Assembly: GCA_947497585.1 (NCBI GenBank)
Contig: CANMHG010000013.1
Span: 13,568 to 77,567, forward strand
DNA from: an uncultured Bacillaceae bacterium
Lineage (GTDB): Bacteria > Bacillota > Bacilli > Bacillales > Bacillaceae_L
DNA: 64,000 bases
Direction of reading: 5' to 3'
Position 1 is the first letter of the stretch. Every line of letters begins with the position of its first letter. A program made the translations under genes and the position numbers. The notes under the pieces were generated by a model. That model worked only from the letters and a program-made list of their open reading frames with translations. It was not told the DNA's origin and searched no databases. Below are positions 13,007 through 44,608 of the stretch, piece by piece.

Positions 13007-13018
13007 TTAATTTCCCCC

Positions 13019-19453: not shown

Positions 19454-19566
19454 TTGGGCATCAAACCCGTCCTCACAGCATACCACCGACACCTAGTATC
19501 TAAGGTTAAATTTAAACCCACAGCATGATCGAGTATCTCCATTAGTATAGGTAAGGAGACATCACC
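19454..19566 (-). ncRNA. EAR/epsC-like cis-regulatory antiterminator RNA, copy 2
   Basis: 113-nt near-copy of 43837-43949 with compensatory stem changes; in a leader behind an internal promoter of the EPS locus. Confidence 0.72.
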
Positions 19567-19580
19567 TATTTTTAAATAAC

Positions 19581-19663
19581 GTTCTTTATAATGAACAAAA
19601 AAGTTGAAAAAAATTCGATTATAAATTTAAAACCATTATAATTCTTTATTAAGAACAAAGCAA
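19581..19663 (-). promoter_or_regulatory. Internal sigma-A promoter with a SinR-type box filling the spacer, plus a second box
   Basis: TTGCTT (19658-19663), 17 nt, TATAAT (19635-19640); boxes at 19641-19656 and 19581-19596. Confidence 0.7.
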
Positions 19664-19681
19664 TTGTTTATTACCTAAAAC

Positions 19682-19728
19682 AAAAGATTATTAAAAAACT
19701 TAAAAGATCTTACATTTAATAATCTTTT
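19682..19728 (-). terminator. 14-bp inverted repeat ending the proximal EPS unit
   Basis: AAAAGATTATTAAA-N19-TTTAATAATCTTTT. Confidence 0.45.
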
Positions 19729-19763
19729 TATGTCGAAATAATTGCATTAACTCTTGACTTATA

Positions 19764-20798
19764 CTATCTTACATTAGTGATTTTTAAAGCCTTGTTACAC
19801 AACTCATAAAACGATGGACTAAAGACAAATAACAATATCATTACTTTATGTTTCCAGCTTATAAGTTTATTTGTAATAATAAGAAAAACACTTTTGTCTA
19901 TTGTTCTTTTGAGAAATCTTAAATCTCTTTCTACACCTGTTAATTCTTGCTTTGCCTTAAAATAATTCCAAAAAAATACGTCTATGTAATGCTTTATTGC
20001 CTTCTCATTTAATTCGTATTCCTTTATTTTTCTAAAGAAGTCTGCCCTGTCTTTCATAGCATATAACTTATCAAATTTTCTTGTAGTAAATGGAGAGTTA
20101 ACTGTACTACCTTGTCTTTGAATATAATAGTATAATCTTAAGTCTATATAAGTTAACTTTCGGCATCTATATAAAATTCTATGAGCTAAAAAAACATCCT
20201 CGTATATTCTACCTTCAATAAATCTTAAATTATTAAACAAATGACGTTTAAAAAGTTTATTACAAGCAATTGCATAGGTTCCACGATTTGTATCGTTTAA
20301 TAAATTTAATGCTTGTAAATTTGATAAATGTTCTATAGTAGTATTTTTCACTAAATCTACTTGAAGATTCTTATCGTTCATTTTTTGTTTTTCAGCCTCT
20401 ATTTCGTCCAATTCATAATAGTCACACATAACTATATCCGAGTCATTATTAATAGCTAAGTCAAACAATATTTTATACATTGTTTGATGTACATAATCAT
20501 CGCTGTCAACAAACCCAATATAATCACCTCGTGCAATGTCAATACCTGTATTTCTGGCTGATGATTGACCTCCATTTTCTTTATGAATAACTATTATCCT
20601 TTTATCAATTTTCGAATAGTACTCGCAAATCTCTCCACTAGAGTCCGTAGAACCATCATTTACAAGAATTATCTCTAAATCAGGATGAGTTTGAGATAAG
20701 ATAGACTTTATACACCTATCCAAATAAACCTCAACATTATATACTGGAACAACAATACTTATACTTGTCACTATATCATCCCCCTTTAATATTAACAT
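19764..20798 (-). CDS. Glycosyltransferase family 2
   Basis: SIVVPVYN, VNDGSTD, FVDSDD; close paralog of 15812-16813. Confidence 0.9.
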   Translation of the reverse strand: MLILKGDDIVTSISIVVPVYNVEVYLDRCIKSILSQTHPDLEIILVNDGSTDSSGEICEYYSKIDKRIIVIHKENGGQSSARNTGIDIARGDYIGFVDSDDYVHQTMYKILFDLAINNDSDIVMCDYYELDEIEAEKQKMNDKNLQVDLVKNTTIEHLSNLQALNLLNDTNRGTYAIACNKLFKRHLFNNLRFIEGRIYEDVFLAHRILYRCRKLTYIDLRLYYYIQRQGSTVNSPFTTRKFDKLYAMKDRADFFRKIKEYELNEKAIKHYIDVFFWNYFKAKQELTGVERDLRFLKRTIDKSVFLIITNKLISWKHKVMILLFVFSPSFYELCNKALKITNVR

Positions 20799-20935
20799 AA
20801 ATTACCAATAGTATATTTTGATAAAAATAACAAAAATGTATTGAAGAAGCCTTTATTTTATAATATATACAATATGTTTATATTCAAATTATTTTCATTT
20901 AGGATTGTTTTTCTATAGGCTAGAATTAAAATATT

Positions 20936-22474
20936 TTAAACTGCTTTAGTAACATTTATCTTGTTTTTTCTAAATCTCTTTATAATTATACTTTTAATGT
21001 ACTTGAATTCACTAGTTTTATAAAAAACGGATATATATATTATATTTGGAACAATTATGCAAATAAATCCTTTTAATATTAAATCTAAAAAACCACTACC
21101 AGTAATTAATATATTACAGATAGTAGATGTCAAAAACATAGCGAACAAGGTTAATCCAGAATAAAGTAGATATTTCTTATAATATGACCAAACAGGTATT
21201 CCGAAGATATATTTAAATACCAAGTACGGAGCATTAAAAAATATAAAGAGAGTACTAATTGTTGTACCTAGAAAAATACCTGCTAACCCTAGATACTTTA
21301 CTAGTATCAATGATGCACCCAAATTAATAGCAGCTTCAAATAATGGTATATATTTATCCTGAGTAAATATTCCGCCCTTAACTTTAAACATTAAGATAGA
21401 TGCTCTTAAACCTCCCAAGAAAAAGTTAACAAGAATTACTGAAAAAGTTAAAGAATCCAGTAATAACCCTTCACCTAGCCACCAGTCTATGAATGGCTCT
21501 AATAAAACAAATAAGAATATAACACAAAATGAGTATATCCAAAAATTCACTAGATCTATTACCTTAAAAACTGAATACCTTTTTTCATTAGTTTCAACAG
21601 CTATTAAATTCCCTATACTCGCACCAACCCCGCCCATAATTGGGGAGACTAGTGCTCCTAGTTGACCAATTATCATGGTATAATTTGAATACAGTCCTAC
21701 AGCACCGATACCAATTAATGATGAAATTAAAATATTATCTGTACCAAATACAAAAAATGTTCCTATATTGTGTAAAAAAAGTGCTTTAATATTAACTATT
21801 AATTTTTCCTTTTCAGTATTAGTGATATAGTATTTTTGCTTAGTTTTAATATATGAATATCTTTTTTCAACAATCCTGCCATTAAATAACGTTTGAAAGA
21901 TGAATAATATTAGTTCAACTAACAAAAAGAGAACATAGTTTTGTGTTAATAGAAGAATAATAATCTTTGCTACAGTTGTAATAATTTGGAAGATAAAGTT
22001 ATATCCAGCTATAACATATCCTTTTTGATCAGCATTTATTAAGACGACTTTATGAGCATTTAAGTAATATGTCATGTTTTTTGCAACGAAAAGTAAATAA
22101 ACAATTGTTAAATGCGAGAGTGAATCTCCATCCTTTATTAATATTTCTAAAAATGGATATAAAGCCATGCTCAAAACAAAAACTATAGAAGCGATAACTT
22201 TATATGCTTTTTTATAAAGCTGGATAAGAGCAATAATTCTTGGTTTATCTTTCTCAGCCAAAGGTTTATACAAAAAATAAACAATACTAGTACCTATACC
22301 ACTTTCAACTAGTGCAAGCATAGTTATTACATTTGTTAGTAATCCATTTAGACCTAAATATTCAACACCTAGACTATCTATGAAGACTTTTCTCGACACA
22401 AACCCTAATATAACAATTACGATTTGCGATAAAATACCAATGGATATATTTTTCAAGGAATTTTCAGTTCTCAT
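20936..22474 (-). CDS. Wzx-type oligosaccharide flippase
   Basis: Multi-TM 512 aa; SRKVFIDSLG..YLGLNGL, ESGIG, TDNILIS..G...VGLYSNY. Confidence 0.85.
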   Translation of the reverse strand: MRTENSLKNISIGILSQIVIVILGFVSRKVFIDSLGVEYLGLNGLLTNVITMLALVESGIGTSIVYFLYKPLAEKDKPRIIALIQLYKKAYKVIASIVFVLSMALYPFLEILIKDGDSLSHLTIVYLLFVAKNMTYYLNAHKVVLINADQKGYVIAGYNFIFQIITTVAKIIILLLTQNYVLFLLVELILFIFQTLFNGRIVEKRYSYIKTKQKYYITNTEKEKLIVNIKALFLHNIGTFFVFGTDNILISSLIGIGAVGLYSNYTMIIGQLGALVSPIMGGVGASIGNLIAVETNEKRYSVFKVIDLVNFWIYSFCVIFLFVLLEPFIDWWLGEGLLLDSLTFSVILVNFFLGGLRASILMFKVKGGIFTQDKYIPLFEAAINLGASLILVKYLGLAGIFLGTTISTLFIFFNAPYLVFKYIFGIPVWSYYKKYLLYSGLTLFAMFLTSTICNILITGSGFLDLILKGFICIIVPNIIYISVFYKTSEFKYIKSIIIKRFRKNKINVTKAV

Positions 22475-23418
22475 TTTAATACTCGCCCAATTCTATTTAT
22501 TTGTGTACTTCCATTTTTCCTCATAGTAAAATTCAAATGCCTAATTACAAAAATTAAACATTCTAAAATAGCTAACCCTCCAATTTCCTTAAAGCCTTTA
22601 AAAATTTTGAATGAATTTTTAAATAAAAATGCTGAGGGATAATCATATAGAATATCCATATAATATTTTTTGAAATATTTCACAGCCTTTTCAAAATCTA
22701 TTTTGTAATTTGCATATAGCTTTTCTTCAATTAAGTAATTTTTGATTTGGATATAAGCCCATAGGTTATCTAAAATTTTTTCGTCTCTTCTGCCAGTAGT
22801 GGATTCATTTCTTTTTAAGTAGTTATAAGCTATCTCACTTATAACCGATACTTTTTGGGACTTAATAAATAACTTTGGAATTAGTTCAACGTCCTCATAA
22901 TATTTACCCTCAATAAAGTACAAATTATTATTTATGAATAATTCTCTTTTTATAATTTTGTTACAAGGATATGCCCTTTTTAAAATTTCACTCAAAGTAA
23001 CTTTTCTTGGAATGTATTCTCTTAATTTACTGCCATCTTCATTTACTTCCCTTATACCAATTATTGAAATATCTGAGCTCTTTTGGAAACATGTCTCATA
23101 TAATTGTTTATACATTTCTGGTTCAATCCAATCATCACTATCAACAAAGCCAACATAATCCCCTTTTGCGATTTTAAGTCCTAAGTTCCTTGCACTGGAT
23201 TGTCCTTTGTTTTTAGTATGTATAACCTTAATCCTTGAATCATATTTTGCAAATTCATCACAAATTTCGCCACTATTATCGACTGATCCATCATTAATTA
23301 GAATCAATTCAAAGTCTGTAAAAATTTGATTAAGTATAGATTTAATACATTTAGCTAAATATTTTTCTACATTAAATACAGGAACAATTATGGATATTTT
23401 TGGATTCAAATTGTCCAT
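22471..23418 (-). CDS. Glycosyltransferase family 2
   Basis: SIIVPVFNVEKYL, INDGS, FVDSDD. Confidence 0.9.
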   Translation of the reverse strand: MDNLNPKISIIVPVFNVEKYLAKCIKSILNQIFTDFELILINDGSVDNSGEICDEFAKYDSRIKVIHTKNKGQSSARNLGLKIAKGDYVGFVDSDDWIEPEMYKQLYETCFQKSSDISIIGIREVNEDGSKLREYIPRKVTLSEILKRAYPCNKIIKRELFINNNLYFIEGKYYEDVELIPKLFIKSQKVSVISEIAYNYLKRNESTTGRRDEKILDNLWAYIQIKNYLIEEKLYANYKIDFEKAVKYFKKYYMDILYDYPSAFLFKNSFKIFKGFKEIGGLAILECLIFVIRHLNFTMRKNGSTQINRIGRVLK

Positions 23419-23424
23419 CTCCGT

Positions 23425-24450
23425 CTATATTTTTTTAAATCTAAGCATTTTCTCTAGAAATAATATGCTTCTAACAATCTCCACCAAACAATTGGCCTTT
23501 AAAACTAAGAGGTTTCTATTAAAGTTATTTATTGCAAATAAGAAGTATTTTTCATGTATCAAATTCTTAATTTGAAAATATTTATTTTTTACTGCCGTTT
23601 CTTTTAAATTCAATATTTCTTTAATTTTTTGTAAATACGCTGCTACAGTTTTACTATTTTCATATTTTTCGCATTTGGAGTATATATACCTATTTATATT
23701 GATAAATTTTAATGTTTTCAAGATCTCTTCTCTTGCTACCAAATGTAAATAAAATGATCCTTCAGTTTTATTCATTATGCTTTCATTATTAACCCTTCTA
23801 TACTTATAAAGACCTTCATTTACTGCACTTATGTTTTTTGCTACTGATAAAGCAATTAAGTTAAAGCACAAATCCTCTGCTATCATTATTTTTTCATTTA
23901 TTAATATTTTTTTATCAATAAGGAAACTTTTCTTATATAATTTATTACACATACTTGCATAGCCTAATATTTTATTGTCACTTAACAATAGTTCCAAATT
24001 TGCCTTTATTTCTTTCCCTTCAATACACACATTACCAGCTAAAGGATTTAAAGATTCCCTTATACATTCTCCAGATTTATCAAATTCGATATAACCGCAC
24101 GATATAATATCTGAATTATTCTTTAGTGCAATTTGATACATTTTTTCATACATATTGTTTTGAATAATATCGTCGGCGTCAACAAAACCTATATACTCAC
24201 CTTTTGAAATTAATATACCTAAATTTCTTGTTGCACTTGGTCCCTCATTTATCTTATGTATTACTTTTATTCTAGTATCTTTCCTTGCGTACTCATCACA
24301 AATTTCTCCACAGTTGTCTGGCGATCCATCATTAATTAAAATTAACTCAAACTCTTTTAATGTTTGTCCTAATATAGAGTCCACACACTCGTGTATATAC
24401 TTTTCAACTTTGTAAACCGGAACAATTATACTAATCTTTGGTTTCGCCAT
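23425..24450 (-). CDS. Glycosyltransferase family 2
   Basis: SIIVPVYKVEKY, INDGSPD, FVDADD. Confidence 0.9.
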   Translation of the reverse strand: MAKPKISIIVPVYKVEKYIHECVDSILGQTLKEFELILINDGSPDNCGEICDEYARKDTRIKVIHKINEGPSATRNLGILISKGEYIGFVDADDIIQNNMYEKMYQIALKNNSDIISCGYIEFDKSGECIRESLNPLAGNVCIEGKEIKANLELLLSDNKILGYASMCNKLYKKSFLIDKKILINEKIMIAEDLCFNLIALSVAKNISAVNEGLYKYRRVNNESIMNKTEGSFYLHLVAREEILKTLKFININRYIYSKCEKYENSKTVAAYLQKIKEILNLKETAVKNKYFQIKNLIHEKYFLFAINNFNRNLLVLKANCLVEIVRSILFLEKMLRFKKI

Positions 24451-24543
24451 TTAGTAAGTTCCTCTCTAAAAATTATTAAACTAAAGTATTGAAGGTTTTA
24501 AATGAATTAATTATCTTTACTTATCCATGACATATAAGTGTTG

Positions 24544-25761
24544 TTAACCCTTATTGTTTGCAAAACTATATAATTTTTCTATTTCAAAAGTAGTATCTGT
24601 ATTTTCACTAAGTAAGTTCCTTTTGATTTCTCTCCGTAATTTTTCTTCATTAATTATTTGGGTAATAGCTTCATACAATTGGTGCTTATCAAAATCAACA
24701 ATTATACCAGTTTCATAATTCCTAATCTGTTCATTAGCACCCGTGAAATTAGTACATATTATCGGATTATCAAAACACCTTGCTTCTGCTAATGTTATAC
24801 AATATCCCTCATGTCGTGATGGTTGAACATAAATATCACAGTTTTTCATATAAGGATAAGGATTGGGGTTTGCTCCTAATAAAATGTAACTATCTTCAAT
24901 TGAATAACTTTTTATAAGTTTCTCATATTCATTCCTCGAACTACCATCGCCTATACAATACCACCTTACATTGTAACCAGACGATTTTAATTTTGCCATT
25001 ACGGAAATCGTTAAATCCTGCCCCTTCTCTTTACTTAAACGTCCTACCGTAAGTATTTTTAATCCATTAAATTCTTCCTCAGTTTCAAATCCTTTTCCAT
25101 CATTGGCCATTTTGTTTATAAGATTTGGTGATATAATGTTTAAGAATTTCTCAGTTTTATCCTTAATTACAGGTAGTTTTTTATCTAATTTACTTTTAGC
25201 TTCATTTGATACAACAAAAATCTTATCAAACTTTTTATAAATTTTTTCAGCGTATTTCTTGTTAAATCCTATTTTTGTAATATCAAAATGTATCCACTGT
25301 ATTTTCTTTTTGGCATTCACTTTATTTAAAACAAAGTAGCTTATGAAATCCATTGGACCTGCATAAGCTACTGCAATATCATATTCTACTAATTTATATG
25401 AATGTTTTTTAAAAATGTAATTAAAGAAAACACTTCTGTTATTAATCCATTTAGATATTAAATGGATAGCCATAATATTTAAAGCATCAATTACTTTTCC
25501 TTTCCTTAAAAAATCTAGTGAAGACACACGTGGTGGATTATTAATAAGTCCTTTTATCTTGTCATAGGATTCTAAATATTCAAGATTCACCCAATTGGGT
25601 ATATAATTTAAATATCCACCATTTTTCTCCAACATAAGTAAAGTAATATCATATTGCTCTTTTGGCATTACTGAAATCATATTCAGTAAGGCTTTTTCAG
25701 TGCCACCCACGTTCATATTTATTATCATAAATAGTATCTTTTTTTTCATAACTTCACTCAC
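24544..25761 (-). CDS. Glycosyltransferase family 4
   Basis: GGTEKAL, VGRLSKEKG, PSRHEGYCITLAEA. Confidence 0.9.
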   Translation of the reverse strand: MSEVMKKKILFMIINMNVGGTEKALLNMISVMPKEQYDITLLMLEKNGGYLNYIPNWVNLEYLESYDKIKGLINNPPRVSSLDFLRKGKVIDALNIMAIHLISKWINNRSVFFNYIFKKHSYKLVEYDIAVAYAGPMDFISYFVLNKVNAKKKIQWIHFDITKIGFNKKYAEKIYKKFDKIFVVSNEAKSKLDKKLPVIKDKTEKFLNIISPNLINKMANDGKGFETEEEFNGLKILTVGRLSKEKGQDLTISVMAKLKSSGYNVRWYCIGDGSSRNEYEKLIKSYSIEDSYILLGANPNPYPYMKNCDIYVQPSRHEGYCITLAEARCFDNPIICTNFTGANEQIRNYETGIIVDFDKHQLYEAITQIINEEKLRREIKRNLLSENTDTTFEIEKLYSFANNKG

Positions 25762-25812
25762 TTACTAAAGATTATTAAAACTAAATAACTACTGCTCTTT
25801 AATCGAGTACTT

Positions 25813-27003
25813 TCATCCTAATAATTGATAAAACATCTGAATTTCTTCACTATTCCCCTTTTTTTCTGACTTTAAATATTTTATAATGCTTTGTCTTAAC
25901 TCAATTTGCTTGATAAGTTTAAGAATTCCATCGCAAACAGACTCACTATCCATATTGACTACTAGCCCGTTTTTTTCATCAACCATTTGACTATAAACTG
26001 CATCAAATCTTGTTGTAACTACTGGAACATTCAACATCCTTGCCTCAGCAATTGCTAGGCCAAATCCTTCAAACCTTGAGGTTTGAACATAAATATCTGC
26101 GTTCTTTATATATGGGTACGGATTTGCTTTAACTCCTAGTAAAATGAAATTCTCTGATAAGTTATTTTGTTTAATGTATTCTCTGATTTCTTTTTCCAAA
26201 GGACCCTTACCTAGTGAATACCACTTAAAATCAATGCCCTTTTCTTTTAGCATTTTGCATGCTCCTAGTGCGATATCATATCCTTTTTGGTAAGCTAACC
26301 TTCCAATCGTAAGAATCTTTAAACCCTCATATTGATCATTAAAACCTTCTCCTAAATCAGCCATTTTCTCAATAAAAGAAGGATTATTTATATCATAAAT
26401 CACCTTCATTTTTTGTGAATAGTAAGGGAAGGTTTCAATAAATACTTTTTTTGTTGAATCAGAAACAGCTATTATGTTGTTGTACTGGTCATAATACTTT
26501 TTTTGAAATTCTTTTTCAATTTTCTCTAGACGATAACTTACATTTACCCATGCATATTTCTTCTTAGCTTTTATTTTCTCTGCTACATAAAACGTTGGAA
26601 CCCCTTGAGCGTAACTTATCGCAATGTCATATGTTTTGGGATTACTATCGATTACTTTTGAGACACTTTGCCAGTAAATTCTAGCTTTTTGAGGGTTACT
26701 ATACTGTTTTTTTCTTATCGCTAATGAGTAACTTATCCTTGAATTCAACATCTCAAAGTCAAAGTTCTTTATTGAAGAAATAAAAGCTTCTTTAAGACCT
26801 AATTCGGAAAACTTTGAATATTTTAATGGCTCCAAAATGTTAACTTCAATCGGAACTAGTTCCTCTAATACCTTACCATGTGCAAACAGCATTAGATCTA
26901 CTGTAAATTTCGTATAATCTAACATAGATAAAAGGGTTACTAAACTTTTTTCTGCACCAGCAACATCTAAAGAGTCAATTGCAAATAAGAGTTTCTTTTT
27001 CAA
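25813..27003 (-). CDS. Glycosyltransferase family 4
   Basis: AGAEKSL, IGRLAYQKG, TSRFEGFGLAIAEA. Confidence 0.9.
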   Translation of the reverse strand: MKKKLLFAIDSLDVAGAEKSLVTLLSMLDYTKFTVDLMLFAHGKVLEELVPIEVNILEPLKYSKFSELGLKEAFISSIKNFDFEMLNSRISYSLAIRKKQYSNPQKARIYWQSVSKVIDSNPKTYDIAISYAQGVPTFYVAEKIKAKKKYAWVNVSYRLEKIEKEFQKKYYDQYNNIIAVSDSTKKVFIETFPYYSQKMKVIYDINNPSFIEKMADLGEGFNDQYEGLKILTIGRLAYQKGYDIALGACKMLKEKGIDFKWYSLGKGPLEKEIREYIKQNNLSENFILLGVKANPYPYIKNADIYVQTSRFEGFGLAIAEARMLNVPVVTTRFDAVYSQMVDEKNGLVVNMDSESVCDGILKLIKQIELRQSIIKYLKSEKKGNSEEIQMFYQLLG

Positions 27004-27059
27004 TTTAATCTCCCTATCCTATTAACATATAATTAATTATGAAAAAATCTTTATATTAC

Positions 27060-28043
27060 TTATCTTCTTATGATACCCTTCACGGAAATCATAACAACTA
27101 AAAAACGCACATTATAATTCAATAATGTAATCAAGTACTTATACATTAGTGATAATGTCTCAGTCTTTAAAATCTGACTATAGTATCGTCTGACACATCC
27201 TTGAATCATTTCCAAGTATTTATGTCTGTATACCCTATTCTCAACCTGATTCAAAACATAATAAACATTATCAACACACCAATAACCAAAACTGGAAAAT
27301 ACAGTTTCTGAAAGCTGGGGATACTTTTTACTCATGAAAACCAGTATTTCATCCCAACCTAAAAAAGCATCCAGCCTCTTTTCACTGAATGTTGATGTTA
27401 ATATACTATTTTCTCTTTTTACATACATGTAGCCAATATAGCTTGTGTAAACAGCTTTATTTGCATTGGCAAACAATCTATAAGTAGTTGATAGATCTTC
27501 GTGAATACGGCCTTCTGGGAATTGAATTTTATCAAAACAGCTTCTTTTAAATAGTTTATTACATAATGAAAATCTATAAAGTGCCCCTTTAAAAAGCTCA
27601 TTCATAGATTCTACATGATTTAATTCCTTTACAAATTCTTCCTCACCACTATTTATAAGTGTTCCGTTTACTACTCTTCCTAACTTACAAATGGCAATAT
27701 CACTATTAGTTTTAGAGGATAATGCATATAGGTTACTATACATTTTAGCTTCAATGTAGTCATCCCCATCAACGAAACCAATGTATTCACCTGTCGCCGC
27801 ATTGATACCTGTGTTTCTTGCAGAGCTTACTCCACCATATTCCTTATGAATGACTTTCACTCTGTTATCATTATCAGCATATTCATCACAAATTGAGCCA
27901 CTTCCATCTGTTGAGCCATCATTTATGAGTAGCAATTCAAAATCTGAGAATGATTGTGATAGAATACTATCGATACAACCATTGAGATAGGGCTCTAAAT
28001 TATAAATTGGTACAATAATACTTATCTTAGGCTTCATGTACAT
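27060..28043 (-). CDS. Glycosyltransferase family 2
   Basis: SIIVPIYN, INDGSTD, FVDGDD. Confidence 0.9.
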   Translation of the reverse strand: MYMKPKISIIVPIYNLEPYLNGCIDSILSQSFSDFELLLINDGSTDGSGSICDEYADNDNRVKVIHKEYGGVSSARNTGINAATGEYIGFVDGDDYIEAKMYSNLYALSSKTNSDIAICKLGRVVNGTLINSGEEEFVKELNHVESMNELFKGALYRFSLCNKLFKRSCFDKIQFPEGRIHEDLSTTYRLFANANKAVYTSYIGYMYVKRENSILTSTFSEKRLDAFLGWDEILVFMSKKYPQLSETVFSSFGYWCVDNVYYVLNQVENRVYRHKYLEMIQGCVRRYYSQILKTETLSLMYKYLITLLNYNVRFLVVMISVKGIIRR

Positions 28044-28052
28044 ATATCCACC

Positions 28053-28469
28053 TTATAATTTAATTTTTTCTTTTACAATTGTAGAGGAAACGCCTTTTGT
28101 ATAAGGGAAATAAACAACATCTACACCCACTTGATTAAATTTCTTTTCTACTTGTTCAAAAAGATGATTCCCTTTCCAGTCATCTCCCACAAACATGACA
28201 TCAAATTTGATACTTTCCCACGCTGAATACTTATCACGATTCACTTGAGGAACAACCTGATCGACATATTTTATACCTTCCACAATCGCCATTCTTTCCT
28301 CTTCTGGTATAACTGGAACTCTATCTTTATATTCCATGACCAACGCATCCGTACTTACTCCAACGATAAGATATTCACATTGTTCTTTTGCTTTTTGTAA
28401 GATATTTAGATGACCTACGTGAAATAAATCAAATACCCCAGTTGTATACCCAATTTTATACGGCTTCAT
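28053..28469 (-). CDS. tagD: Glycerol-3-phosphate cytidylyltransferase
   Basis: YTTGVFDLFHVGH, GDDWKG, YT.GVSST; start reassigned to ATG 28469. Confidence 0.85.
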   Translation of the reverse strand: MKPYKIGYTTGVFDLFHVGHLNILQKAKEQCEYLIVGVSTDALVMEYKDRVPVIPEEERMAIVEGIKYVDQVVPQVNRDKYSAWESIKFDVMFVGDDWKGNHLFEQVEKKFNQVGVDVVYFPYTKGVSSTIVKEKIKL

Positions 28470-29643: not shown

Positions 29644-29668
29644 GCATCATTTCCCTCCTTTCTAAGTC

Positions 29669-30697: not shown

Positions 30698-30709
30698 CTT
30701 TGTTCCCCC

Positions 30710-31900: not shown

Positions 31901-31903
31901 AGA

Positions 31904-33010: not shown

Positions 33011-33012
33011 GG

Positions 33013-34167: not shown

Positions 34168-34189
34168 GTTGACACCTCCTTAGAATAAT

Positions 34190-35245: not shown

Positions 35246-35255
35246 TCACACACCC

Positions 35256-35414
35256 CTATGTGTTCTCATTGGTATCTATAACTCCTAAGAACTGATTTCT
35301 AATTTCTTCAATTGCTTCAAGTAGTTTCATAGATTCTGTTTCATTTCCTTTTTGATACATAGTTAATAAAATCTCTTGAAGTTGTTCAGCAGTTAGTTTT
35401 TCTGAAATACTCAT
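35256..35414 (-). CDS. Hypothetical 52-aa protein MSISEKLTAEQLQEILLTMYQKGNETESMKLLEAIEEIRNQFLGVIDTNENT
   Basis: Hand-translated; AGGAAGG RBS; fills the galE-GNAT gap in operon orientation. Confidence 0.6.
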   Translation of the reverse strand: MSISEKLTAEQLQEILLTMYQKGNETESMKLLEAIEEIRNQFLGVIDTNENT

Positions 35415-35446
35415 TTTCTTATCCTTCCTACAAACATTCTACTCTT

Positions 35447-36490
35447 TTATGAAAGAATACTATCTACCTTCAATTCACTATGGCTATAACCGTTCGGATT
35501 TTTAGACTGCCACTTCCATGCATCGAAGCACATCTCCTGAATCCCTTTTTCCGCTTTCCAACCAAGCTCCTTTTTAGCCTTTGCTACATCAGCATAACAG
35601 GTTGCTATATCACCTGGTCTTCTGGCTACAATTTTGTGAGGTATTTTTATACCAGTTGAAGTCTCAAATGCAGAAATTACCTCTAGCACACTGTATCCAA
35701 TTCCGGTTCCCAGGTTATATACAGACACTTCATTCGAACTTTGATTTTTACTTAAAGCTTTTACATGTCCTAATGCTAGGTCAACCACGTGAACATAATC
35801 TCTTACTCCAGTACCGTCAATGGTCGGATAATCTCCACCAAACACCTGAAGCTCCTTCAATTCTCCTATTGCAACCTTTGTTATATAAGGCATTAGATTG
35901 TTCGGTATCCCATTGGGATCCTCTCCAATCTCACCACTACTATGAGCTCCGACTGGATTAAAGTAACGTAAGATTGAAATACTCCATTCATTATCTGAAA
36001 CATAAAGATCTCGAAGGATTTCTTCAATCATTAGCTTGGTTCGACCATATGGATTGGTAGCTTGTAAAGAATTGTCTTCTAGAATCGGTACATGTTCTGG
36101 GTTTCCATAAACTGTTGCGGATGAACTAAAAACAATATTTTTCACATTGAATTTTTTCATTACCTCACAAAGTACAATTGTTCCAGAGATATTATTGTTA
36201 TAATAGTCTAATGGTTTCTCAACAGATTCTCCCACTGCTTTATAGCCCGCAAAATGAATAACCCCATCTATTTTGTTATCTGAAAAAATTTTATTTAAAC
36301 CTTCCCTATCAAGAAGATCTATCGTGTAAACCATAAAAGTTTTGCCTGTAATGTTCTTAACTTTCTCTAGGGATTGAGGTTTACTATTTGAAAAGTTGTC
36401 TAATACAATTACTTCATATCCAGCTTCAAGAAGTTCAACAATGGTGTGAGTTCCGATGTACCCTGCTCCTCCAGTAACTAATATTGCCAC
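35447..36490 (-). CDS. galE: UDP-glucose 4-epimerase
   Basis: [44 protein letters not shown]. Confidence 0.96.
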
Positions 36491-36566
36491 TTTTTACACA
36501 CCTCACTTATGAAAATAAAAAAGTAAATTGATACGGAGATCAATTTACTCAAAAGAATTTTGCTTA

Positions 36567-37649
36567 TTATAGTTGTAAATAATCACTACGATATTGGATA
36601 AATAAGGTCATTACACTTTCAAAATAATAATATAGAAAATAACAACTAATAATTCCAAAGTATACCAACTTTTGCTGTTTTTCATGAAAAAGCATAACTA
36701 CCCATGAAATTAAAATTAAGGAATATAGACTAAAGTAAATAGAAAATCTAGCAAAAATCCAATTCTGAGTAGAGATTATCATAAAGATAAAGCCAATCAT
36801 CGCCATATTAACAATATAGTCACTATTAGGAAAAATTTGTCTGAGCTTTTCCCTACCTAAAAACGCAAGCAATAACGGTACAGCATCCACAGCTACTCTA
36901 ATAATATTTGCTCCACCTTCAGTTGAATTCTGATAAACTCCATACTCTGTATCTTCTATTGCGGAAAATAAAATTGCTGAAAATTGATTGAATCCTAAAA
37001 CGATAATTACCGCTCCTGCCATAAGAAAAAATGTTGATTTCGACCATGCTTTTGCACGAACTATGAAATAAATAGGGATTAGTACTAATGCACTTTGGTG
37101 AAAAAAAGATGCAAAAACGACTACTAGAATATATTTCATCCAATTACCATTAATGATAAATTTTGTTGCAGTGAATATGATTGCAGCTGCAAGTACTTGC
37201 CTAATCCCATTCATTGATACTAAAAACAAGCCACCCGTTATATATACATACAGACTCAACTCTAACATTCTTGAATACTTATAAAGAACAAGCACAATAC
37301 ACATATTTGTTATCAATGCAGTTGTAAATACCATAATTTGTGCATCTTCAGATATCATTTTTAATAACATCTGAAGAATTCCAAATCCAATGTCCTTATG
37401 AGTTAAAATGAATTCCCATGTAAATTCATTTCTCTCATATATCAGCCTATAAAAAAAGGTATCTCCAATATTCCTTCTTAGACCTGAAACTATAACTAAA
37501 GAAGATAAAGCAATTAGGACCAATATTTTATTTGGTTTAATTGGCACATCTGAGTAGTTAGTCGTTGTAATGGTCCGAAAGGTTGAGAAATATCTCGAAA
37601 ATAGCGAAAACAAAAAAACTATGGCTAGATTAGTCCATAGAATAGTCAT
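36567..37649 (-). CDS. EpsG-family polysaccharide polymerase (Wzy)
   Basis: Multi-TM; SGLRRNIGDT, SMNGIRQ, FHQSAL, WIFARF. Confidence 0.85.
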   Translation of the reverse strand: MTILWTNLAIVFLFSLFSRYFSTFRTITTTNYSDVPIKPNKILVLIALSSLVIVSGLRRNIGDTFFYRLIYERNEFTWEFILTHKDIGFGILQMLLKMISEDAQIMVFTTALITNMCIVLVLYKYSRMLELSLYVYITGGLFLVSMNGIRQVLAAAIIFTATKFIINGNWMKYILVVVFASFFHQSALVLIPIYFIVRAKAWSKSTFFLMAGAVIIVLGFNQFSAILFSAIEDTEYGVYQNSTEGGANIIRVAVDAVPLLLAFLGREKLRQIFPNSDYIVNMAMIGFIFMIISTQNWIFARFSIYFSLYSLILISWVVMLFHEKQQKLVYFGIISCYFLYYYFESVMTLFIQYRSDYLQL

Positions 37650-37679
37650 ATCATATGTCCTTTCAGAAAAAGGTTTACT

Positions 37680-38561
37680 TTATATTTTAGCCGGTTTTGC
37701 TTTTGTTATTATTAGTAGATATAGTAGTAATCCAAATGGAATTGCAAATAAAGTCAGCCCTTTTTGAGGGGTTTCTGCTAAAAATGATTTATTTTTATCT
37801 AGTAAACTGCTTGATACATAGTGAATAGCCTGCTTAAATTTAAACCCTAAACTTGCAAATGGCAGTTTCATTAGTTCTTTACGATAAAATGCAAAACCTT
37901 TAGGATTTTTACGATATTGACTCAACATATTCAAAGACGATCCATCTGGAAGATATTCTACACAACATACCACTTCATTCATCAGCAGCATTTCATATTC
38001 CATATCTAGTTTATAATACTTGTACGCTAAGCCAACATATCTTTCATTTTCAAATAGTGGATATGGATATTTTTTAGTTAAATCTGTTCGATAGACCAGC
38101 TTTTTGTCACCGGAAACTCCATGCTTATAATAGAGATGAAATAGAGTTGAAATCTTCAGACCTTCTGGTAGTTTAGTACCAATAATTTTTCCATCCGTAT
38201 AGGAATCTAGCGCTATTATACCACCTACTGTTTTACTACCATTTCTTTGCCAAAAAGATAGTATTTTTTCAACAGCATCATCTGGCATATAATCATCAGA
38301 ATCTATACAAACATTTAACTCAGTATCAATAAGCTCATAAGCTGTGTTATGAGCACCATGCATCCCTTGATTTGTTTGGTAATGGTATCTAATTTCAACT
38401 AGATTCTCTTGGATCCATCCATCAACAAGTATGGATGTATTATCAGTTGAACCATCGTCAATGATTAACCAAATAAAATCATTTGAGGATTGACGCTTTA
38501 AGCTTTCATAGCAATGATGAAGACAATATGCTCGATTATAGGTTGGTGTAAATACTGTCAA
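37680..38561 (-). CDS. Glycosyltransferase family 2
   Basis: VFTPTYNR, IDDGSTD, CIDSDD. Confidence 0.9.
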   Translation of the reverse strand: MTVFTPTYNRAYCLHHCYESLKRQSSNDFIWLIIDDGSTDNTSILVDGWIQENLVEIRYHYQTNQGMHGAHNTAYELIDTELNVCIDSDDYMPDDAVEKILSFWQRNGSKTVGGIIALDSYTDGKIIGTKLPEGLKISTLFHLYYKHGVSGDKKLVYRTDLTKKYPYPLFENERYVGLAYKYYKLDMEYEMLLMNEVVCCVEYLPDGSSLNMLSQYRKNPKGFAFYRKELMKLPFASLGFKFKQAIHYVSSSLLDKNKSFLAETPQKGLTLFAIPFGLLLYLLIITKAKPAKI

Positions 38562-39681
38562 CTTTTTCAGTTACATCTCCCCCGAACCTTTGGTAATAGT
38601 CTTCAATAAATAATGCTGTTTTTCTAATATCATATCCTTTTAGAGAAATTTCCTTTAAAGGTGACTTTCTTGAGTAACTTTTTTGCTTCCATTCAATAAT
38701 GCTGTTCATCCACTGGTTCATTCTATCCAGTGATGCATAATGAACTAGACCCACTCCCAAATCAACTTCTTTTGTAATAGATTGAGATATTATACAAGGT
38801 AACCCTGTTGCTTGTGCTTCAACTAAAGTAACTGGTAAACCCTCGTGTAATGATGGGAAAACAAATAAATCGAAGGCTTGTAGAAGGTCAGATATATCAC
38901 CTCTTACTCCTAGCAGTTTAACCTTTCCGTCCAGATTAAGATGCTTTACTTTTTCCTCAATTCTATTTCGAAGAACTCCATCACCAACTAAAACTAGAGT
39001 TGCATTTGGGACTTTCTTAATTAACCCTGCAAATATATCTAGCAAAAATGTATGGTTTTTTTGATGATTAAATCTGCCAACATGACCAATAACTAATGTG
39101 TCTTCTTTTATCTGTAATGACTCTCTTATCTTAGATCTAACGGTTTTAGAAAATTTAAATCGATTAGTTTCTATCCCATTATTAAGAATGACAGCTTTCT
39201 GAGCTCGAATTCCAAACAACCATTTCGCTGCATCATTTGAACAAGCAAATAGAGAGTTTGCATTAAAACGAATATAACTTCCGGAGATTGATTTATATAA
39301 TTTCGCAGCAATGCCACCTTCACTTTGAGTGTTATGGCTATGTGCAATTCTAACTGAAATACCAGACTTTTTTGCTGCACGAAGGACAAAACCACTCATC
39401 TTATCCATATGAGAATGAACAATTTTATAATGATTTAAACGAAAAAAACTATCTAAAGCTTTAAGGTAAACCGAATGACCAGTCTCTGTAACATATGGTA
39501 TTCTGTGAATCTTACCACCCATCTCACTAATTTCTTTATCAAACACACCTTCCTTACAAGTAAGAAAGTCAAATTGAATTTTCGATCGATCCACATTCCG
39601 GTAAAGATTCATTAGAAGCGTTTCGGCTCCACCGCGATTCATATTTACTACCACATGCAAGATTCTTAATGGGCCGCCCAC
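38536..39681 (-). CDS. Glycosyltransferase family 4 (EpsF-like)
   Basis: MNRGGAETLLMN, GHVGRFNHQKNH, PSLHEGLPVTLVEAQ. Confidence 0.9.
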   Translation of the reverse strand: MGGPLRILHVVVNMNRGGAETLLMNLYRNVDRSKIQFDFLTCKEGVFDKEISEMGGKIHRIPYVTETGHSVYLKALDSFFRLNHYKIVHSHMDKMSGFVLRAAKKSGISVRIAHSHNTQSEGGIAAKLYKSISGSYIRFNANSLFACSNDAAKWLFGIRAQKAVILNNGIETNRFKFSKTVRSKIRESLQIKEDTLVIGHVGRFNHQKNHTFLLDIFAGLIKKVPNATLVLVGDGVLRNRIEEKVKHLNLDGKVKLLGVRGDISDLLQAFDLFVFPSLHEGLPVTLVEAQATGLPCIISQSITKEVDLGVGLVHYASLDRMNQWMNSIIEWKQKSYSRKSPLKEISLKGYDIRKTALFIEDYYQRFGGDVTEKVDSIYTNL

Positions 39682-40844
39682 TTTAGTTCCTCCATTTCTT
39701 TCATATACCTTCTGTAAATCCTACTCTTTTGGTCAAGTACATTTGTAACGCCATAGTTTTGTTCAATCATTAGCCTTGAAGATTTGCCAAGCTTATTTCT
39801 CATATATTCACTTTGAGCAAGCTCAATAATTTTAGAAGCAAATTTCCCTACATCTAAAGGGTTATTGATAAATCCGGTTTCATTATTCTTTACTAGCTCT
39901 CTATGCCCTCGATTCTCGGTTGCCACCACTGGAAGCCCACAGGCCATCGCTTCCAAAATATTTACTGGTAACCCTTCACGAAGACTCGAAGCAACAGCTA
40001 AATCGCTCATTTTCACAAGCAACTCAACATCGTTTCTCAACCCTAGAAAATGAACATACTCATCAATCCCTAGTTTTCTTGCTAGTGCTTTACATTCCTC
40101 CAATAAGGGACCTTCTCCAGCTAGCAAAAGCTTTGCATTAGGTATGTCACCCTTAACTTTGGTAAACGCATTTATGAGTAATTGCTGATTTTTATTCTTA
40201 TTAAATTCAGCAGCATATAATAGAAGAAAGTCTTCTGGACTATAACCAAAAGATCGTCTAATCATATTTTTACGCAACTGATCCACAGGCCTATATACAT
40301 CTGTATTCACCCCTACACCATGAACGTGTTCAATTACACCTGCTTTAAACCCATGACTTTTAGATAGGTTGTAATCCTCACTATTAATCGTTATTAAACA
40401 GTCAGTATAGGAAGCAAGCATTCTTTCAATTGGATAGTAGAGTAGCCAATTAACTAACGGAGCACCTTTGCAAAAATGAAAACCATGTGCTGTATAAATT
40501 ACCTTTGTTCCATTCTTTCTTGCAGCCCTAGCAGCAATGCGAGCTAGTACACCACCCATCGGGGTATGACAATGTATAATCTGGTATTGGTTATTATCAA
40601 TGGTCTCCTTTAACTGGTTATAAGCAGTGAGATTCTTAACCTTAAAAGGTGACCGTTGAATTGGAATATCATATTTCTCATCAACAAAAGGGAGCTCTAG
40701 GTTACCACTAGCTGCAATGTGAACTTCCCAGCCTTGTTCTTTAAACCATTTTAGATAAGGAATGTGGAAGGCTTTAAAGTGATAATCAACGGTAGCACAA
40801 AAAAGCACACGCTTTTTTGTCGTCTGCTTTCCATTCGTCATCAT
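39666..40844 (-). CDS. Glycosyltransferase family 4 (EpsD-like)
   Basis: [32 protein letters not shown]...EAMA. Confidence 0.9.
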
Positions 40845-41728
40845 TTTACTAGCTCTTTATCTAACACAGTTTTGAAATAATCTAATAAATTGTTACGCAA
40901 ATCGTCACGTTTTAATGCAAACTCTAATGTAGTTTGAATAAACCCCATTTTTTCACCAACGTCGTAACGAGTTCCTTCAAAATCATAAGCATATACTGCT
41001 TCGTGTTGGTTTAAACCAGCGATTGCATCTGTTAACTGAATTTCTCCCCCAGCACCTGGAACCTGGTTTTCAAGAATATTAAATATCCTAGGATTTAGAA
41101 TATAACGTCCCATAATTGCTAGATTTGATGGTGATTCCTCTTGTCTAGGTTTCTCTACAAGACTATTTACGCTGAAGAAACGTTCACCGATTTTGTTTCC
41201 ATCGACAATTCCATATCTTGATACTTCATTTTCAGGTACAGTTTGAACACCTAAGATAGAAGCATTATAACGTTTATATTGCTCAATCATCTGCGTTAAA
41301 CATGGCCTTTCTGCAGAGACAATATCATCTCCTAATAGAACAGCAAATGGTTCATCACCAATGAATTTACGTGCACACCAAATCGCATGACCTAATCCCT
41401 TAGGTTCTTTTTGACGAATATAATGGATATCAACTAGTTTCGATGATTTTTGTACTTCTTCTAATAATTCAAATTTACCTTTATCAAATAAATTCTGTTC
41501 TAGCTCAAACGAATGATCGAAGTGATCTTCAATCGCACGTTTACCTTTACCAGTAACAATGATTATATCCTCAATCCCAGAATCTACAGCTTCTTCAATA
41601 ATATATTGAATTGTCGGTTTATCAACAATCGGTAACATTTCTTTTGGCATTGCTTTGGTTGCTGGTAGAAATCTCGTTCCAAGACCGGCAGCTGGGATAA
41701 TGGCTTTTCTTACTCTTTTCATCAACAT
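40841..41728 (-). CDS. galU: UTP-glucose-1-phosphate uridylyltransferase
   Basis: [35 protein letters not shown]. Confidence 0.96.
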
Positions 41729-41736
41729 TGCTCCTT

Positions 41737-43587
41737 TTAACCTGGGATAGATAGTAGTTTCTGGGCGACAGGCTTACGATTAGCTAGCTTTAAAAGTTCA
41801 TCCCTAAGTTCTTCTTTTGATAGTTTAGTATAAACAGAAATTAGCTCTTCAATTTCGTTAATATACAGGTGAGCGGATTTTCCTACATAAATTTTTGGAT
41901 ACACCTGGTTTTCATGAACTTCCTCATCCTTTAGTAACTCCTCAAAAAGCTTTTCACCTGGTCTCTTTCCGGTATACTCAATTCCGATTTCATCAATTGA
42001 GTTACCTGAAAGCTTAATTAGGTTCTTGGCTAAATCCACTATTTTAACTGGATCACCCATATCAAGGACGAAGACTTCTCCACCTTTTGCTAGAGAACCA
42101 GCTTGGATCACTAATCTTGATGCTTCAGGAATTGTCATAAAATAGCGAACCATTTCAGGATCTGTAACAGTAACCGGTCCGCCTTTTTCGATTTGCTTTT
42201 TAAAGAGAGGAATGACACTTCCTCGACTTCCTAATACATTGCCGAACCGAACTGCTACAAACTTTGTTTTACTATATCGGTCCATATTTTGAATCAGCAT
42301 TTCTGCTAATCGCTTTGTTGCTCCCATTACACTTGTAGGGTTAACCGCTTTATCTGTTGAAACCATTACAAATGTTTCTACACCGTGCCAACTTGCAGCC
42401 TGAGCGACATTCCTCGTACCAATAATGTTATTCTTAACTGCTACATCAGGATTTTTCTCCATTAACGGAACATGCTTGTGTGCAGCTGCGTGATACACAA
42501 CATTTGGACGATGTGCATTCATAACTCTCATCATTTGCTTCTCATCTTGTAGCTCTGCTATTTCAGTTACGAACTCAATTTTTGACTGTCTGAAAGTCTC
42601 TTTTAATTCCATTTCAATGGTATAGATGCTGTTTTCTCCGTGCCCTAGAAGGATAAGCTGTTTTGGATTAAATTTAGAAATCTGTCTACAAATCTCTGAA
42701 CCTATTGAACCACCAGCCCCAGTTACTAGAACCACCTTATCAGTTACATATTCAGAAATGCTTTCAATATCTAGATCAACCGGTTCTCTCCCTAGTAGAT
42801 CCTCTACTTGGACATCTCGGAACTGACTGACTGAAACCTTTCCAGTGATTAAGTCCTCTAACATTGGGAGGATTTGAGTCTTAGCATTTGTTTTTGCACA
42901 TTCTTGAAAGATGACATTAAGTTCCCGTTTACTTAATGAAGGAATGGCAATAATAATATTTTCTATTGATAGTTCCTTTACAGCACATTCAATTTGATTA
43001 ACCCCACCTAATACTGGTAATCCTAAAATATCTAGCTTCTGCTTTTTTACACTGTCGTCGATGAACGCAACTGCTAATAGATCGCCCTCATTGTTTTTTA
43101 AAAGTTGTCTTGCAACCATTCGACCTGCTGAACCAGCTCCAACAATAAGTGTTCTCCTTCTGTTTTCCGGCTTATTGATTATAGAATTTCGATATAATCT
43201 AAGAGTAAAACGTGAGCCACCCATTAATAACATATGAAGCATATAAGTCACGGTAAGAAGCCGAAAGTGAACCTGTTGATTCATTACTAACTGAACGATC
43301 GCAGCCAATAATAAAGAAAAGCCTACAACTCTGAGTATGATTAGTAATTCACCAATACTTGCATACTCCCAAGCTTTCTTATAAAGTTTAAATTTTAATG
43401 AGAAAAAATGATGACTAAAAAGAATGACAGCTGAAGTGATTATGATTTGTAGGTTGAATACATGAATGTCAGCATTCACTAAAAAGCTACTAAAGAAAAT
43501 TGCAGTAAAAACGATACACGAATCTATCAAGATAAAAAACGATAGCCTCTGACGGTAGGTCATAGCTTTCCCCCTTCCAATAACCAT
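41737..43587 (-). CDS. Polysaccharide biosynthesis protein, NDP-sugar 4,6-dehydratase (EpsC/CapD/PglF type)
   Basis: N-terminal TM helices; [46 protein letters not shown]. Confidence 0.93.
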
Positions 43588-43593
43588 TTATCC

Positions 43594-43734
43594 TTACTCT
43601 GCATGGACTAATCTCGTTTGTATCGCATATTCAATCAGTTTTTTAATATCCTCCAGTTGTTCCTTTGTTGCATCTTGTTTGATGTATCTAACAGCTTTTT
43701 TAATTGATTTTGGAAATTTATCAAATTCCTTCAT
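43594..43734 (-). CDS. Hypothetical 46-aa protein MKEFDKFPKSIKKAVRYIKQDATKEQLEDIKKLIEYAIQTRLVHAE
   Basis: Hand-translated; AAGGAG upstream; first ORF after EAR copy 1. Confidence 0.6.
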   Translation of the reverse strand: MKEFDKFPKSIKKAVRYIKQDATKEQLEDIKKLIEYAIQTRLVHAE

Positions 43735-43836
43735 AAAAAGTGCTACAGCTCCTTATTTTATTAGTTGAATAAATTAAAGTTCTTAACTATAAGGTCTTGT
43801 AAGGAAACCTTATGGTTAAAAGCTTTAAATTTAAAA

Positions 43837-43949
43837 TTGGGCATCTAACCCACCCTCACACCACACTTTTGACAACAGATGTGTCTAAGGTTTTTTCAAC
43901 CCACAGCATGATCGAGTGCCTCCATCGATAACGGTAAGGAGACATCACC
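43837..43949 (-). ncRNA. EAR/epsC-like cis-regulatory antiterminator RNA, copy 1
   Basis: Multi-hairpin 113-nt element upstream of an epsC-like gene (canonical EAR context); duplicated at 19454-19566. Confidence 0.75.
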
Positions 43950-43970
43950 GCATAATAAAACGAACATTAA

Positions 43971-44139
43971 TTTCTCAATAAAGAACACTATAGTAAAAAT
44001 ATAACCAACATATGTCTGGTTTAGTTTGATTTATTCTTTTTAAAGAACATTTCCTGTGAAAAAATACTTTTTTACTTACTTTTGTTCAGTTTGGAAAACT
44101 TATTACCCTCAGTTTAGTTCTTTATACAGAACAAGTCAA
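43971..44139 (-). promoter_or_regulatory. Main EPS sigma-A promoter with three SinR-type boxes
   Basis: TTGACT (44134-44139), 17 nt, TAAACT (44111-44116) with box 44117-44132 in the spacer; further boxes at 44033-44048 and 43971-43986. Confidence 0.7.
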
Positions 44140-44173: not shown

Positions 44174-44518
44174 CTATGAACTATAGTTTCTTTCTTTTCC
44201 AAGGGTTAAAGCTAGTTCTTTTAACTCATCAACTGTAATGTTATATTTTTTTAATTCTAAAGATAGACGTTTTAATTCTAGGTCAAATGAATCAGGTTCT
44301 TCTTGGTTGGCAGTTGGTTTCAGATCACCAAAGAAATAGGATATATCAATATCAAAGTACTTTGATAAGTCCTCTAGAAAGTCAATCGCCGGTTTTCTAC
44401 TTCCACGTTCAATTTTTGATAAATTGCTGTAGTTAAATTGAATAGCCTCTCCTAATTCCTTTAACGTCATTCCACGGTCAATTCTTAATTCCTTAATACG
44501 GTCTCCTATGTGCTTCAC
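44174..44518 (-). CDS. XRE-family HTH transcriptional regulator
   Basis: IGDRIKELR...TLKELGE...SNLSKIERG; GTG start after GAGGTG. Confidence 0.85.
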   Translation of the reverse strand: MKHIGDRIKELRIDRGMTLKELGEAIQFNYSNLSKIERGSRKPAIDFLEDLSKYFDIDISYFFGDLKPTANQEEPDSFDLELKRLSLELKKYNITVDELKELALTLGKERNYSS

Positions 44519-44557
44519 CTGTATTCTATCACCTCTTATGTACTCACAGAACATTAC

Positions 44558-44608
44558 GTTCTTTATAAAGAATAAAATTACTATAACACGGATTGTCAGT
44601 TTGAACAA
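44558..44608 (-). promoter_or_regulatory. Promoter of the XRE gene with a SinR-type box over +1
   Basis: TTGTTC (44603-44608), 17 nt, TGt-TATAGT (44580-44585); box 44558-44573. Confidence 0.55.

Follow-up and report, generated by a model that had tools for sequence, protein, structure and literature searches.

How does a very long polysaccharide cluster stay silent and then come to be expressed whole? The question is raised here by a minus-strand polysaccharide locus, of biofilm or capsule type, of an uncultured Bacillaceae bacterium, contained in a stretch of 64,000 nucleotides (GenBank assembly GCA_947497585.1, contig CANMHG010000013.1, positions 13,568 to 77,567 of the forward strand; hereafter the window). 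The locus runs from 43587 to 7181 as an uninterrupted row of 33 genes and one small open reading frame (ORF) over ~37 kb, and it holds two copies of the eps-associated RNA (EAR), termed EAR1 and EAR2. The EAR of the Bacillus subtilis epsA-O operon was reportedly described by Irnov and Winkler in 2010. It is, to our knowledge, among the very few processive antiterminators made of RNA only, and the work on it that we know of concerns the single copy of B. subtilis. We consider it reasonably probable that the present locus forms a single super-operon which transcription enters at two points, each gated by SinR and armed by an EAR. As the parts are all of known kinds, the finding extends the existing picture and opens no new one; the architecture is a rare variant of B. 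subtilis eps control. A locus of this type provides a natural test of the reach of an EAR (here 24 kb and 12 kb), of whether a second copy re-arms the polymerase, and of how such long clusters are switched as a whole.

Both copies belong to the EAR family

An earlier note on this DNA, made from the sequence alone, had proposed two EAR-like RNAs and named an Infernal search with the Rfam epsC model as the check. That search (cmscan, Rfam 15) returned RF01735 (epsC/EAR) for both, with E values of 7.8e-18 for EAR1 and 3.4e-15 for EAR2. Each match covers model positions 1-117, and both scores (Table 1) lie above the gathering score of 42. These are the only cis-regulatory RNA matches in the whole window. 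Both copies are 113 nt long and contain the shared blocks quoted in the earlier note, the coordinates of which were one base off.

The fold was assessed on an alignment of nine EARs from four genomes: three from this genome (4.17 Mb, 54 contigs; the third copy lies on another contig and scores 115 bits), two from each of two Fredinandcohnia genomes, and two from one further genome. Within the five-helix fold 97.3% of cells are paired; sliding of the 3' partners lowers this to 38-52%. Eight pairs have changed on both sides. The particular stem changes previously cited as compensatory are one-sided (G-C to G-U, U-G to U-A, C-G to U-G), with no double change among them. A terminator-like hairpin at 43839-43855 was discarded as a terminator, being the last helix of EAR1. 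Both window copies thus combine a score above gathering, full length, a conserved fold, a polysaccharide-locus setting and predicted terminators downstream, and on these sequence grounds they are confirmed as genuine EAR-family RNAs.

EAR1 and EAR2 share 77% identity, and EARs of other genomes are at least as close to them; between EAR1 here and EAR1 of Fredinandcohnia humi (G020), identity reaches 85%. With copies only 77% identical, a recent duplication of the cassette is ruled out, and the duplicated cassette of the earlier note has to be given up. By their divergence, EAR1 and EAR2 are old instances of one module.

Each EAR follows a predicted promoter filled by a SinR-type palindrome

Each EAR lies behind a predicted promoter in which T plus a 16-nt palindrome takes up the 17-nt spacer exactly, with more such boxes downstream, a design that the earlier note had read correctly. 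In P-EAR1, the -35 element TTGACT (44139-44134) is joined by the spacer TGTTCTGTATAAAGAAC to the -10 element TAAACT (44116-44111), with a predicted start near 44104. P-EAR2 consists of TTGCTT (19663-19658), the spacer TGTTCTTAATAAAGAAT and TATAAT (19640-19635), with a predicted start near 19628. The epsAB promoter, located on contig C15, is of like design (TTGACA, T plus palindrome, TACAAT); a second palindrome follows 93 bp downstream and a third stands right behind the epsB stop codon. These three promoters of the genome have in common the arrangement -35, T plus 16-nt palindrome, -10. Flanking of a palindrome by such elements through chance alone would be expected ~0.05 times among the 34 sites of the genome, by rough estimate. 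The design suggests that both P-EAR1 and P-EAR2 are active promoters.

The palindrome, GTTCTTTATwAAGAAy, comprises two GTTCTTT-type half-sites inverted as 7+2+7, often with a direct half-site behind. We take this geometry to be that of the SinR operator crystallised with SinR (3ZKC). A weight matrix built from 82 palindromes of other genomes was used to scan the 4.17-Mb genome at a cut-off of at least 14 bits. Almost half of the resulting 34 sites (16) fall within 49 kb round the locus; with a stricter pattern, 13 of 18 sites lie inside the same 49 kb, and every site of at least 19.7 bits is found at this locus or at the epsAB promoter. The biofilm-matrix genes considered in this count are the present locus and epsAB. 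Next to the locus and divergent from it lies the gene of a SinR orthologue, which has a recognition helix nearly identical to that of B. subtilis SinR. The region between it and a neighbouring XRE-family regulator holds three further palindromes (44558-44573, 44627-44642 and 44693-44708). To judge by sequence, the palindromes are real and regulon-specific; the simplest reading is that they are operators of the SinR orthologue next to them, which would bind there. An action of the palindrome as an RNA hairpin was judged unlikely, because its arms (GTTC...GAA) are invariant without covariation.

The XRE regulator directly upstream of P-EAR1 occupies the position that SlrR has in B. subtilis, where the slrR gene is operator-controlled. 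The TTG start listed for it is probably too far upstream: homology begins at residue 33 and the start is probably near 44521. The top palindrome of the genome (24.8 bits, 44558-44573) lies inside this over-extension, that is, in the regulator's own leader, and the regulator gene is itself likely operator-controlled.

Terminators and a proposed mechanism with two entry points

Canonical terminators are predicted downstream of each EAR, as the earlier note had expected, and two hairpins of unit 2 (10623-10665 and 7120-7147) lie near sites that it had named. The best internal terminator, at 15801-15825, had been overlooked there; nine genes lie downstream of it, the priming sugar transferase included. 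The terminator placed at 19682 between the units did not hold up, as this 14-bp all-A/U hairpin (z -1.2) behaves like shuffled sequence. Because the boundary hairpin is weak, polymerase from unit 1 probably runs into unit 2, and the units probably overlap. The proposed split of the locus into two units with an antiterminator each is therefore retained as regards the two promoter-box-EAR heads and abandoned as regards a clean boundary.

In the proposed mechanism, each entry point would consist of a sigma-A promoter with a SinR-type operator as its spacer, one or two leader operators, and then the EAR. Relief of the repressor would let RNA polymerase start near 44104 and near 19628. Having transcribed an EAR, the polymerase would resist the intrinsic terminators downstream, as in B. 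subtilis. Unit 1 would have two sites to be overridden, 30342-30367 and 27368-27391, and unit 2 another two, 15801-15825 and 10623-10665. Between the units, polymerase that had started at P-EAR1 would meet only the weak hairpin and then cross EAR2, which could re-arm it. The proposal builds on features read from the DNA itself (EAR identity and fold, promoter-operator design and its conservation, operator clustering, the neighbouring SinR orthologue, terminator hairpins), and the two-unit division is our interpretation of them; antitermination by EAR1 or EAR2 would be expected by analogy. The B. subtilis eps genes form two transcription units, epsAB and epsC-O, according to a recent preprint, and a unit that starts at an EAR therefore has a precedent.

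The sole priming sugar transferase found in the locus is in unit 2, which suggests that the two units work in one pathway and have to be turned on jointly, with unit 1 depending on unit 2 for priming.

Table 1 Features of the two-EAR locus, listed from the SinR orthologue towards the end of unit 2 (window positions)
Feature	Position	Strand	Basis
SinR orthologue (HTH + SinI-type domain), divergent from locus	44772..45179	+	E 3e-28 to B. subtilis SinR (1b0n/3zkc), full length
XRE-family regulator directly upstream of P-EAR1	44174..44608	-	homology
Predicted promoter P-EAR1: TTGACT / 17-nt spacer (T + palindrome 44117-44132) / TAAACT	44111..44139	-	sequence design
SinR-type palindrome GTTCTTTAAAAAGAAT in EAR1 leader	44033..44048	-	19.7 bits
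Proximal SinR-type palindrome GTTCTTTATTGAGAAA, 20 nt upstream of EAR1, then half-site TGTTCGTTT	43971..43986	-	22.5 bits
EAR1 (eps-associated RNA, RF01735)	43838..43950	-	full-length match, 108.2 bits
Conserved 46-aa ORF between EAR1 and epsC (MKEFDKFPKSIKKAVRYIKQ...)	43594..43734	-	good ribosome-binding site
Proposed unit 1, 21 genes	19764..43587	-	Pfam
Intragenic terminator-like site in unit 1, 9-bp stem + T8	30342..30367	-	sequence prediction
Second intragenic terminator-like site in unit 1	27368..27391	-	sequence prediction
Weak all-A/U 14-bp hairpin (19-nt loop) + GUUUU after last unit 1 gene, doubtful terminator	19682..19728	-	-13.6 kcal/mol over a 99-nt stretch, z -1.2
Predicted promoter P-EAR2: TTGCTT / 17-nt spacer (T + palindrome 19641-19656) / TATAAT	19635..19663	-	sequence design
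Proximal SinR-type palindrome GTTCATTATAAAGAAC, 13 nt upstream of EAR2	19581..19596	-	22.2 bits
EAR2 (eps-associated RNA, RF01735)	19455..19567	-	full-length match, 95.8 bits, 4 non-canonical pairs
Proposed unit 2, 12 genes	7181..19381	-	Pfam; gene order/ORF sizes matched in G016, G020
Canonical intrinsic terminator, GT2/rmlA gap in unit 2: 10-bp stem + U6	15801..15825	-	z -3.9
Internal palindrome (T-run + GTTCGTTATAATGAAT), epimerase/DRL gap	11910..11925	-	sequence scan
12-bp hairpin with interrupted U tract, DRL/metallophosphoesterase gap	10623..10665	-	z -4.6
Internal palindrome with T-run, short gene gap of unit 2	9801..9816	-	sequence scan
Strong hairpin terminator, end of unit 2	7120..7147	-	z -5.4

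The second unit and EAR pairs in other genomes

We compared the locus with 28 species genomes of the family and 221 of the order. Among the family species, this genome shares with two Fredinandcohnia genomes, G020 and G016, a pair of EARs on one strand of one contig at a distance of 22-25 kb. In both of the latter, the genes correspond to those of units 1 and 2 in order and ORF size. This synteny rests on ORF sizes and order plus one protein search: the orthologue of the unit 2 FAD oxidoreductase, the sole unit 2 orthologue confirmed, is 81% identical in G020, G016 and G022, and in all three an EAR lies ~5.2 kb upstream of it. A deacetylase query gave no match in a first scan of the genome contigs. 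The EAR2 module is preceded by the promoter TTGATT, T plus GTTCTTTATAATGAAC, TAAACT in G020, and by TCGAAA, T plus GTTCTTTATTAAGAAT, TATGAT in G022. By these sequence comparisons, three Fredinandcohnia species have retained the EAR2 unit together with its EAR, and two of them also the promoter design. The module as a whole is present in four of the 28 family species, and three relatives of the same genus are without it.

In G022 (L144, C53, positions 2846-3032) the 5' GGTGATG and the first helix of the EAR are damaged behind an intact operator-filled promoter; G022 may be in the course of losing its second EAR.

Across the order sample an EAR is present in 141 of 221 species, of which about one in three has two or more copies. 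Pairs on the same strand and no more than 50 kb apart were seen, among the matches listed, here and in two further genomes. In one of these, G056, the gene row reads EAR, epsC, one gene, EAR, with 3 kb between the two EARs; in the other, G224, they are 23 kb apart and belong to two adjacent independent loci of different type. A locus with two EARs is thus a rare arrangement, yet one that recurs. Full-text literature searches, which left out the original EAR paper and the review on processive antitermination, gave no mention of such an arrangement.

Pairing of palindrome and EAR beyond this locus

When the 80 nearest EpsC loci of named Bacillales genomes were inspected, 78 had an EAR upstream. 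We collected 96 EAR-upstream stretches, of which 89 belong to other loci, mostly linked to EpsC (in Neobacillus, Rossellomorea, Fredinandcohnia, Paenibacillus and others), and found the GTTC-N8-GAA palindrome (consensus GTTCTTTATTAAGAA[C/T]) in 77 of the 96; with four exceptions, it precedes the EAR by 1-37 nt. Its usual place is the short gap behind the epsB stop codon and a T-run, often with a direct half-site behind it. No consistent -35/-10 positions between the proximal palindrome and the EAR were seen by eye in the 96 stretches. In three Paenibacillus loci that have no epsAB upstream (L044, L089, L071), an extra palindrome fills the spacer of a strong promoter before the EAR, for example TTGACA-TGTTCTTTATAAAGAAC-TAATAT, and the design in L044 and L089 is identical to that of P-EAR1.

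The pairing is not universal. A broad sample of 40 EARs from ~38 families of the order has a palindrome within 31 nt in nine cases, and the EARs of three single-contig genomes of ~4 Mb are without one. So are EARs behind cpsB-type phosphatase genes, including the third copy of this genome (C3:28491-28601), which follows a CpsB phosphatase gene and precedes GalU-like and priming-transferase genes. The surroundings of this third EAR (C3:18501-58500, examined as L095 and L096) contain three c-di-GMP-I riboswitches (RF01051), at 5364-5449 on the minus and 7128-7217 on the plus strand of L095 and at 9197-9281 on the plus strand of L096, and the same contig has one palindrome at C3:47416.

That a SinR-type site is so closely paired with an EAR across many genera points to a coupling of repression and antitermination at a single place. 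It is possible, and we put it forward tentatively, that the site and the EAR form one conserved composite in which the repressor gates the loading site of the antiterminator. The repressor might act as a roadblock that halts stray polymerase before it acquires terminator resistance, or it might control an unmapped promoter, with the EAR as the 5' end of the transcript. The two cassettes of the window would then be two copies of a portable gate-plus-antiterminator head.

Alternative explanations

Several observations weigh against two SinR-gated, EAR-armed entry points. The -35 element of P-EAR2 is weak (3/6), owing to which a generic promoter scan left P-EAR2 unlisted. In G016 no promoter is visible before EAR2, where the proximal palindrome stands by itself, and in G022 EAR2 is degenerate (57 bits) with its promoter kept, which may mean that the locus can do without a second EAR. 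Recognisable -35/-10 flanks are missing from the palindrome after epsB in most related loci, and boxes beside an EAR alone therefore do not indicate a promoter. The XRE regulator could be the palindrome-binding protein, and in B. thuringiensis the EAR-bearing eps locus is reported not to be under SinR control (PMC3909190). The last two points would suit an operator that belongs to the XRE regulator, or to a SinR/SlrR-like heteromer, instead of SinR, with promoters and EARs unchanged. This regulator lies directly upstream of P-EAR1 (an ORF of similar size is found there in G016), and its leader carries the highest-scoring palindrome of the genome. We nevertheless think a change of repressor rather unlikely, as the GTTCTTT half-site and the 7+2+7 geometry agree with the published operator of SinR (3ZKC), and the SinR orthologue keeps its recognition helix.

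The locus could also be a single operon transcribed from P-EAR1, in which EAR2 is an internal point for re-loading antitermination and the palindromes nearby are auxiliary operators or roadblocks. The weak hairpin alone between the units, the position of palindrome and EAR inside the operon after epsB in most related loci, the two EARs in one gene row of G056, and G016 with its EAR2 lacking a clear promoter would all fit. However, the operator of P-EAR2 is bordered directly by a perfect TATAAT and by the TTG of its -35, just as the operators are bordered at P-EAR1 and the epsAB promoter, the design is kept in G020 and G022, and such flanking is scarcely expected by chance, which makes a single promoter unlikely. 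Still less probable, in our judgement, is that EAR2 is a relic of a fusion between polysaccharide loci that each had a promoter-operator-EAR head, and is no longer needed for expression. A fusion would account for the patchy distribution of the unit 2 module, for the age and divergence of the two EARs and for the decay of EAR2 in G022, and G224 offers an example of adjacent independent loci with an EAR in each. Against loss of function, EAR2 scores 96-111 bits with its pairing kept in three of the four genomes, and the canonical terminator at 15801-15825 separates it from nine genes. We favour two SinR-gated, EAR-armed entry points.

Gene content and neighbouring regions

Pfam assignments for unit 1 include an EpsC-like dehydratase, a GalU-like transferase, 13 glycosyltransferases (6 GT4, 7 GT2), an EpsG-like polymerase, an epimerase/dehydratase, a FemAB/GNAT-like protein, a DegT aminotransferase, TagF-like and TagD-like proteins and a flippase. 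Unit 2 encodes a deacetylase with LRR, an acyltransferase_3, a GT2, RmlA, RmlC, the FAD oxidoreductase, an epimerase, a DRL oxidoreductase, a metallophosphoesterase, a CpsB phosphatase, the priming sugar transferase (Bac_transf) and a 359-aa protein of unknown family. EAR1 stands before the EpsC homologue and EAR2 before the deacetylase. The two palindromes within unit 2 (11910-11925 and 9801-9816) have no EAR, and their layout is like that of epsB-EAR gaps in other genomes; they could be internal promoters or roadblock sites.

The 46-aa ORF between EAR1 and epsC (MKEFDKFPKSIKKAVRYIKQDATKEQLEDIKKLIEYAIQTRLVHAE) has near versions in the same position in Cytobacillus sp. S13-E01 (L015), Neobacillus (L035) and F. 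humi, and the EAR-epsC gap measures ~250 nt, room enough for it, in about half of the 78 EAR-bearing EpsC loci. The epsA/epsB pair (a Wzz-like protein of 247 aa and a tyrosine kinase of 221 aa) lies outside the locus, at C15:48300-49900. The usual palindrome stands directly after the epsB stop codon there (49855) and is followed by a gene for a 472-aa coiled-coil protein in place of EAR-epsC. This looks like a rearrangement that separated epsAB from the rest.

Downstream of the locus are two asparagine-synthetase-like genes and an HPr-kinase-like gene, labelled lasso genes in the earlier note, to which this cluster's lasso identity goes back; on the minus strand at 9-6876 they are accompanied by a gene for a 407-aa protein of unknown family. 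Read-through from EAR2 had been suggested to reach them. It is not needed for their control, as the strong terminator at 7120-7147 and the cluster's own palindromes at 6905-6920 and 6989-7004 precede them, and the lasso-like genes have, by sequence, a terminator-insulated control region of their own with the same operators. Palindromes occur at five positions in the gaps of the cluster (3211, 4549, 4591, 6905 and 6989), and from this the cluster appears to share the regulon of the polysaccharide locus. Two more palindromes lie further along the contig (C13:9155 and 9715). The right flank (48350-52324, minus strand) is ordinary housekeeping: a comG competence pilus operon (ComGA-, ComGB-, ComGF- and ComGG-like), a shikimate kinase and a chemotaxis receptor.

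Comparison with known systems

The RNAs described here belong to the same family as the B. subtilis EAR, match it over the full length with the same helices, and in the case of EAR1 stand directly before the EpsC homologue. As in B. subtilis, the setting is a polysaccharide operon with intrinsic terminators downstream, and the SinR repression of the eps locus there has its parallel in the SinR control predicted here. The arrangement differs in that two EARs lie in one locus, 24 kb apart, with the second before a deacetylase gene and not before epsC, and in that epsAB is unlinked, on another contig. Unit 1 extends over 24 kb, compared with ~13 kb for epsC-O. Whereas the B. subtilis EAR is situated between the second and third genes of its operon, each EAR here has its own predicted promoter in front.

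The palindromes share with the SinR operators of B. subtilis (GTTCTYT, 3ZKC) the half-site, the inverted 7+2+7 arrangement and the presence of several operators per control region, and as with the biofilm promoters of that species the SinR orthologue is encoded beside its predicted target locus. In contrast to those operators, a predicted operator exactly fills the 17-nt spacer at three promoters here, and extra copies stand right before an EAR and in internal gene gaps.

Repeated loading sites for antitermination are familiar from phages, with nutL and nutR of lambda and the two put sites of phage HK022. Like the put RNAs and nut, the EAR is a cis-acting RNA element that is, by prediction, used at two places here to confer terminator resistance. 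Unlike the put RNAs, it belongs to another RNA family and another host, and both of its copies in this locus serve, as we propose, one biosynthetic pathway.

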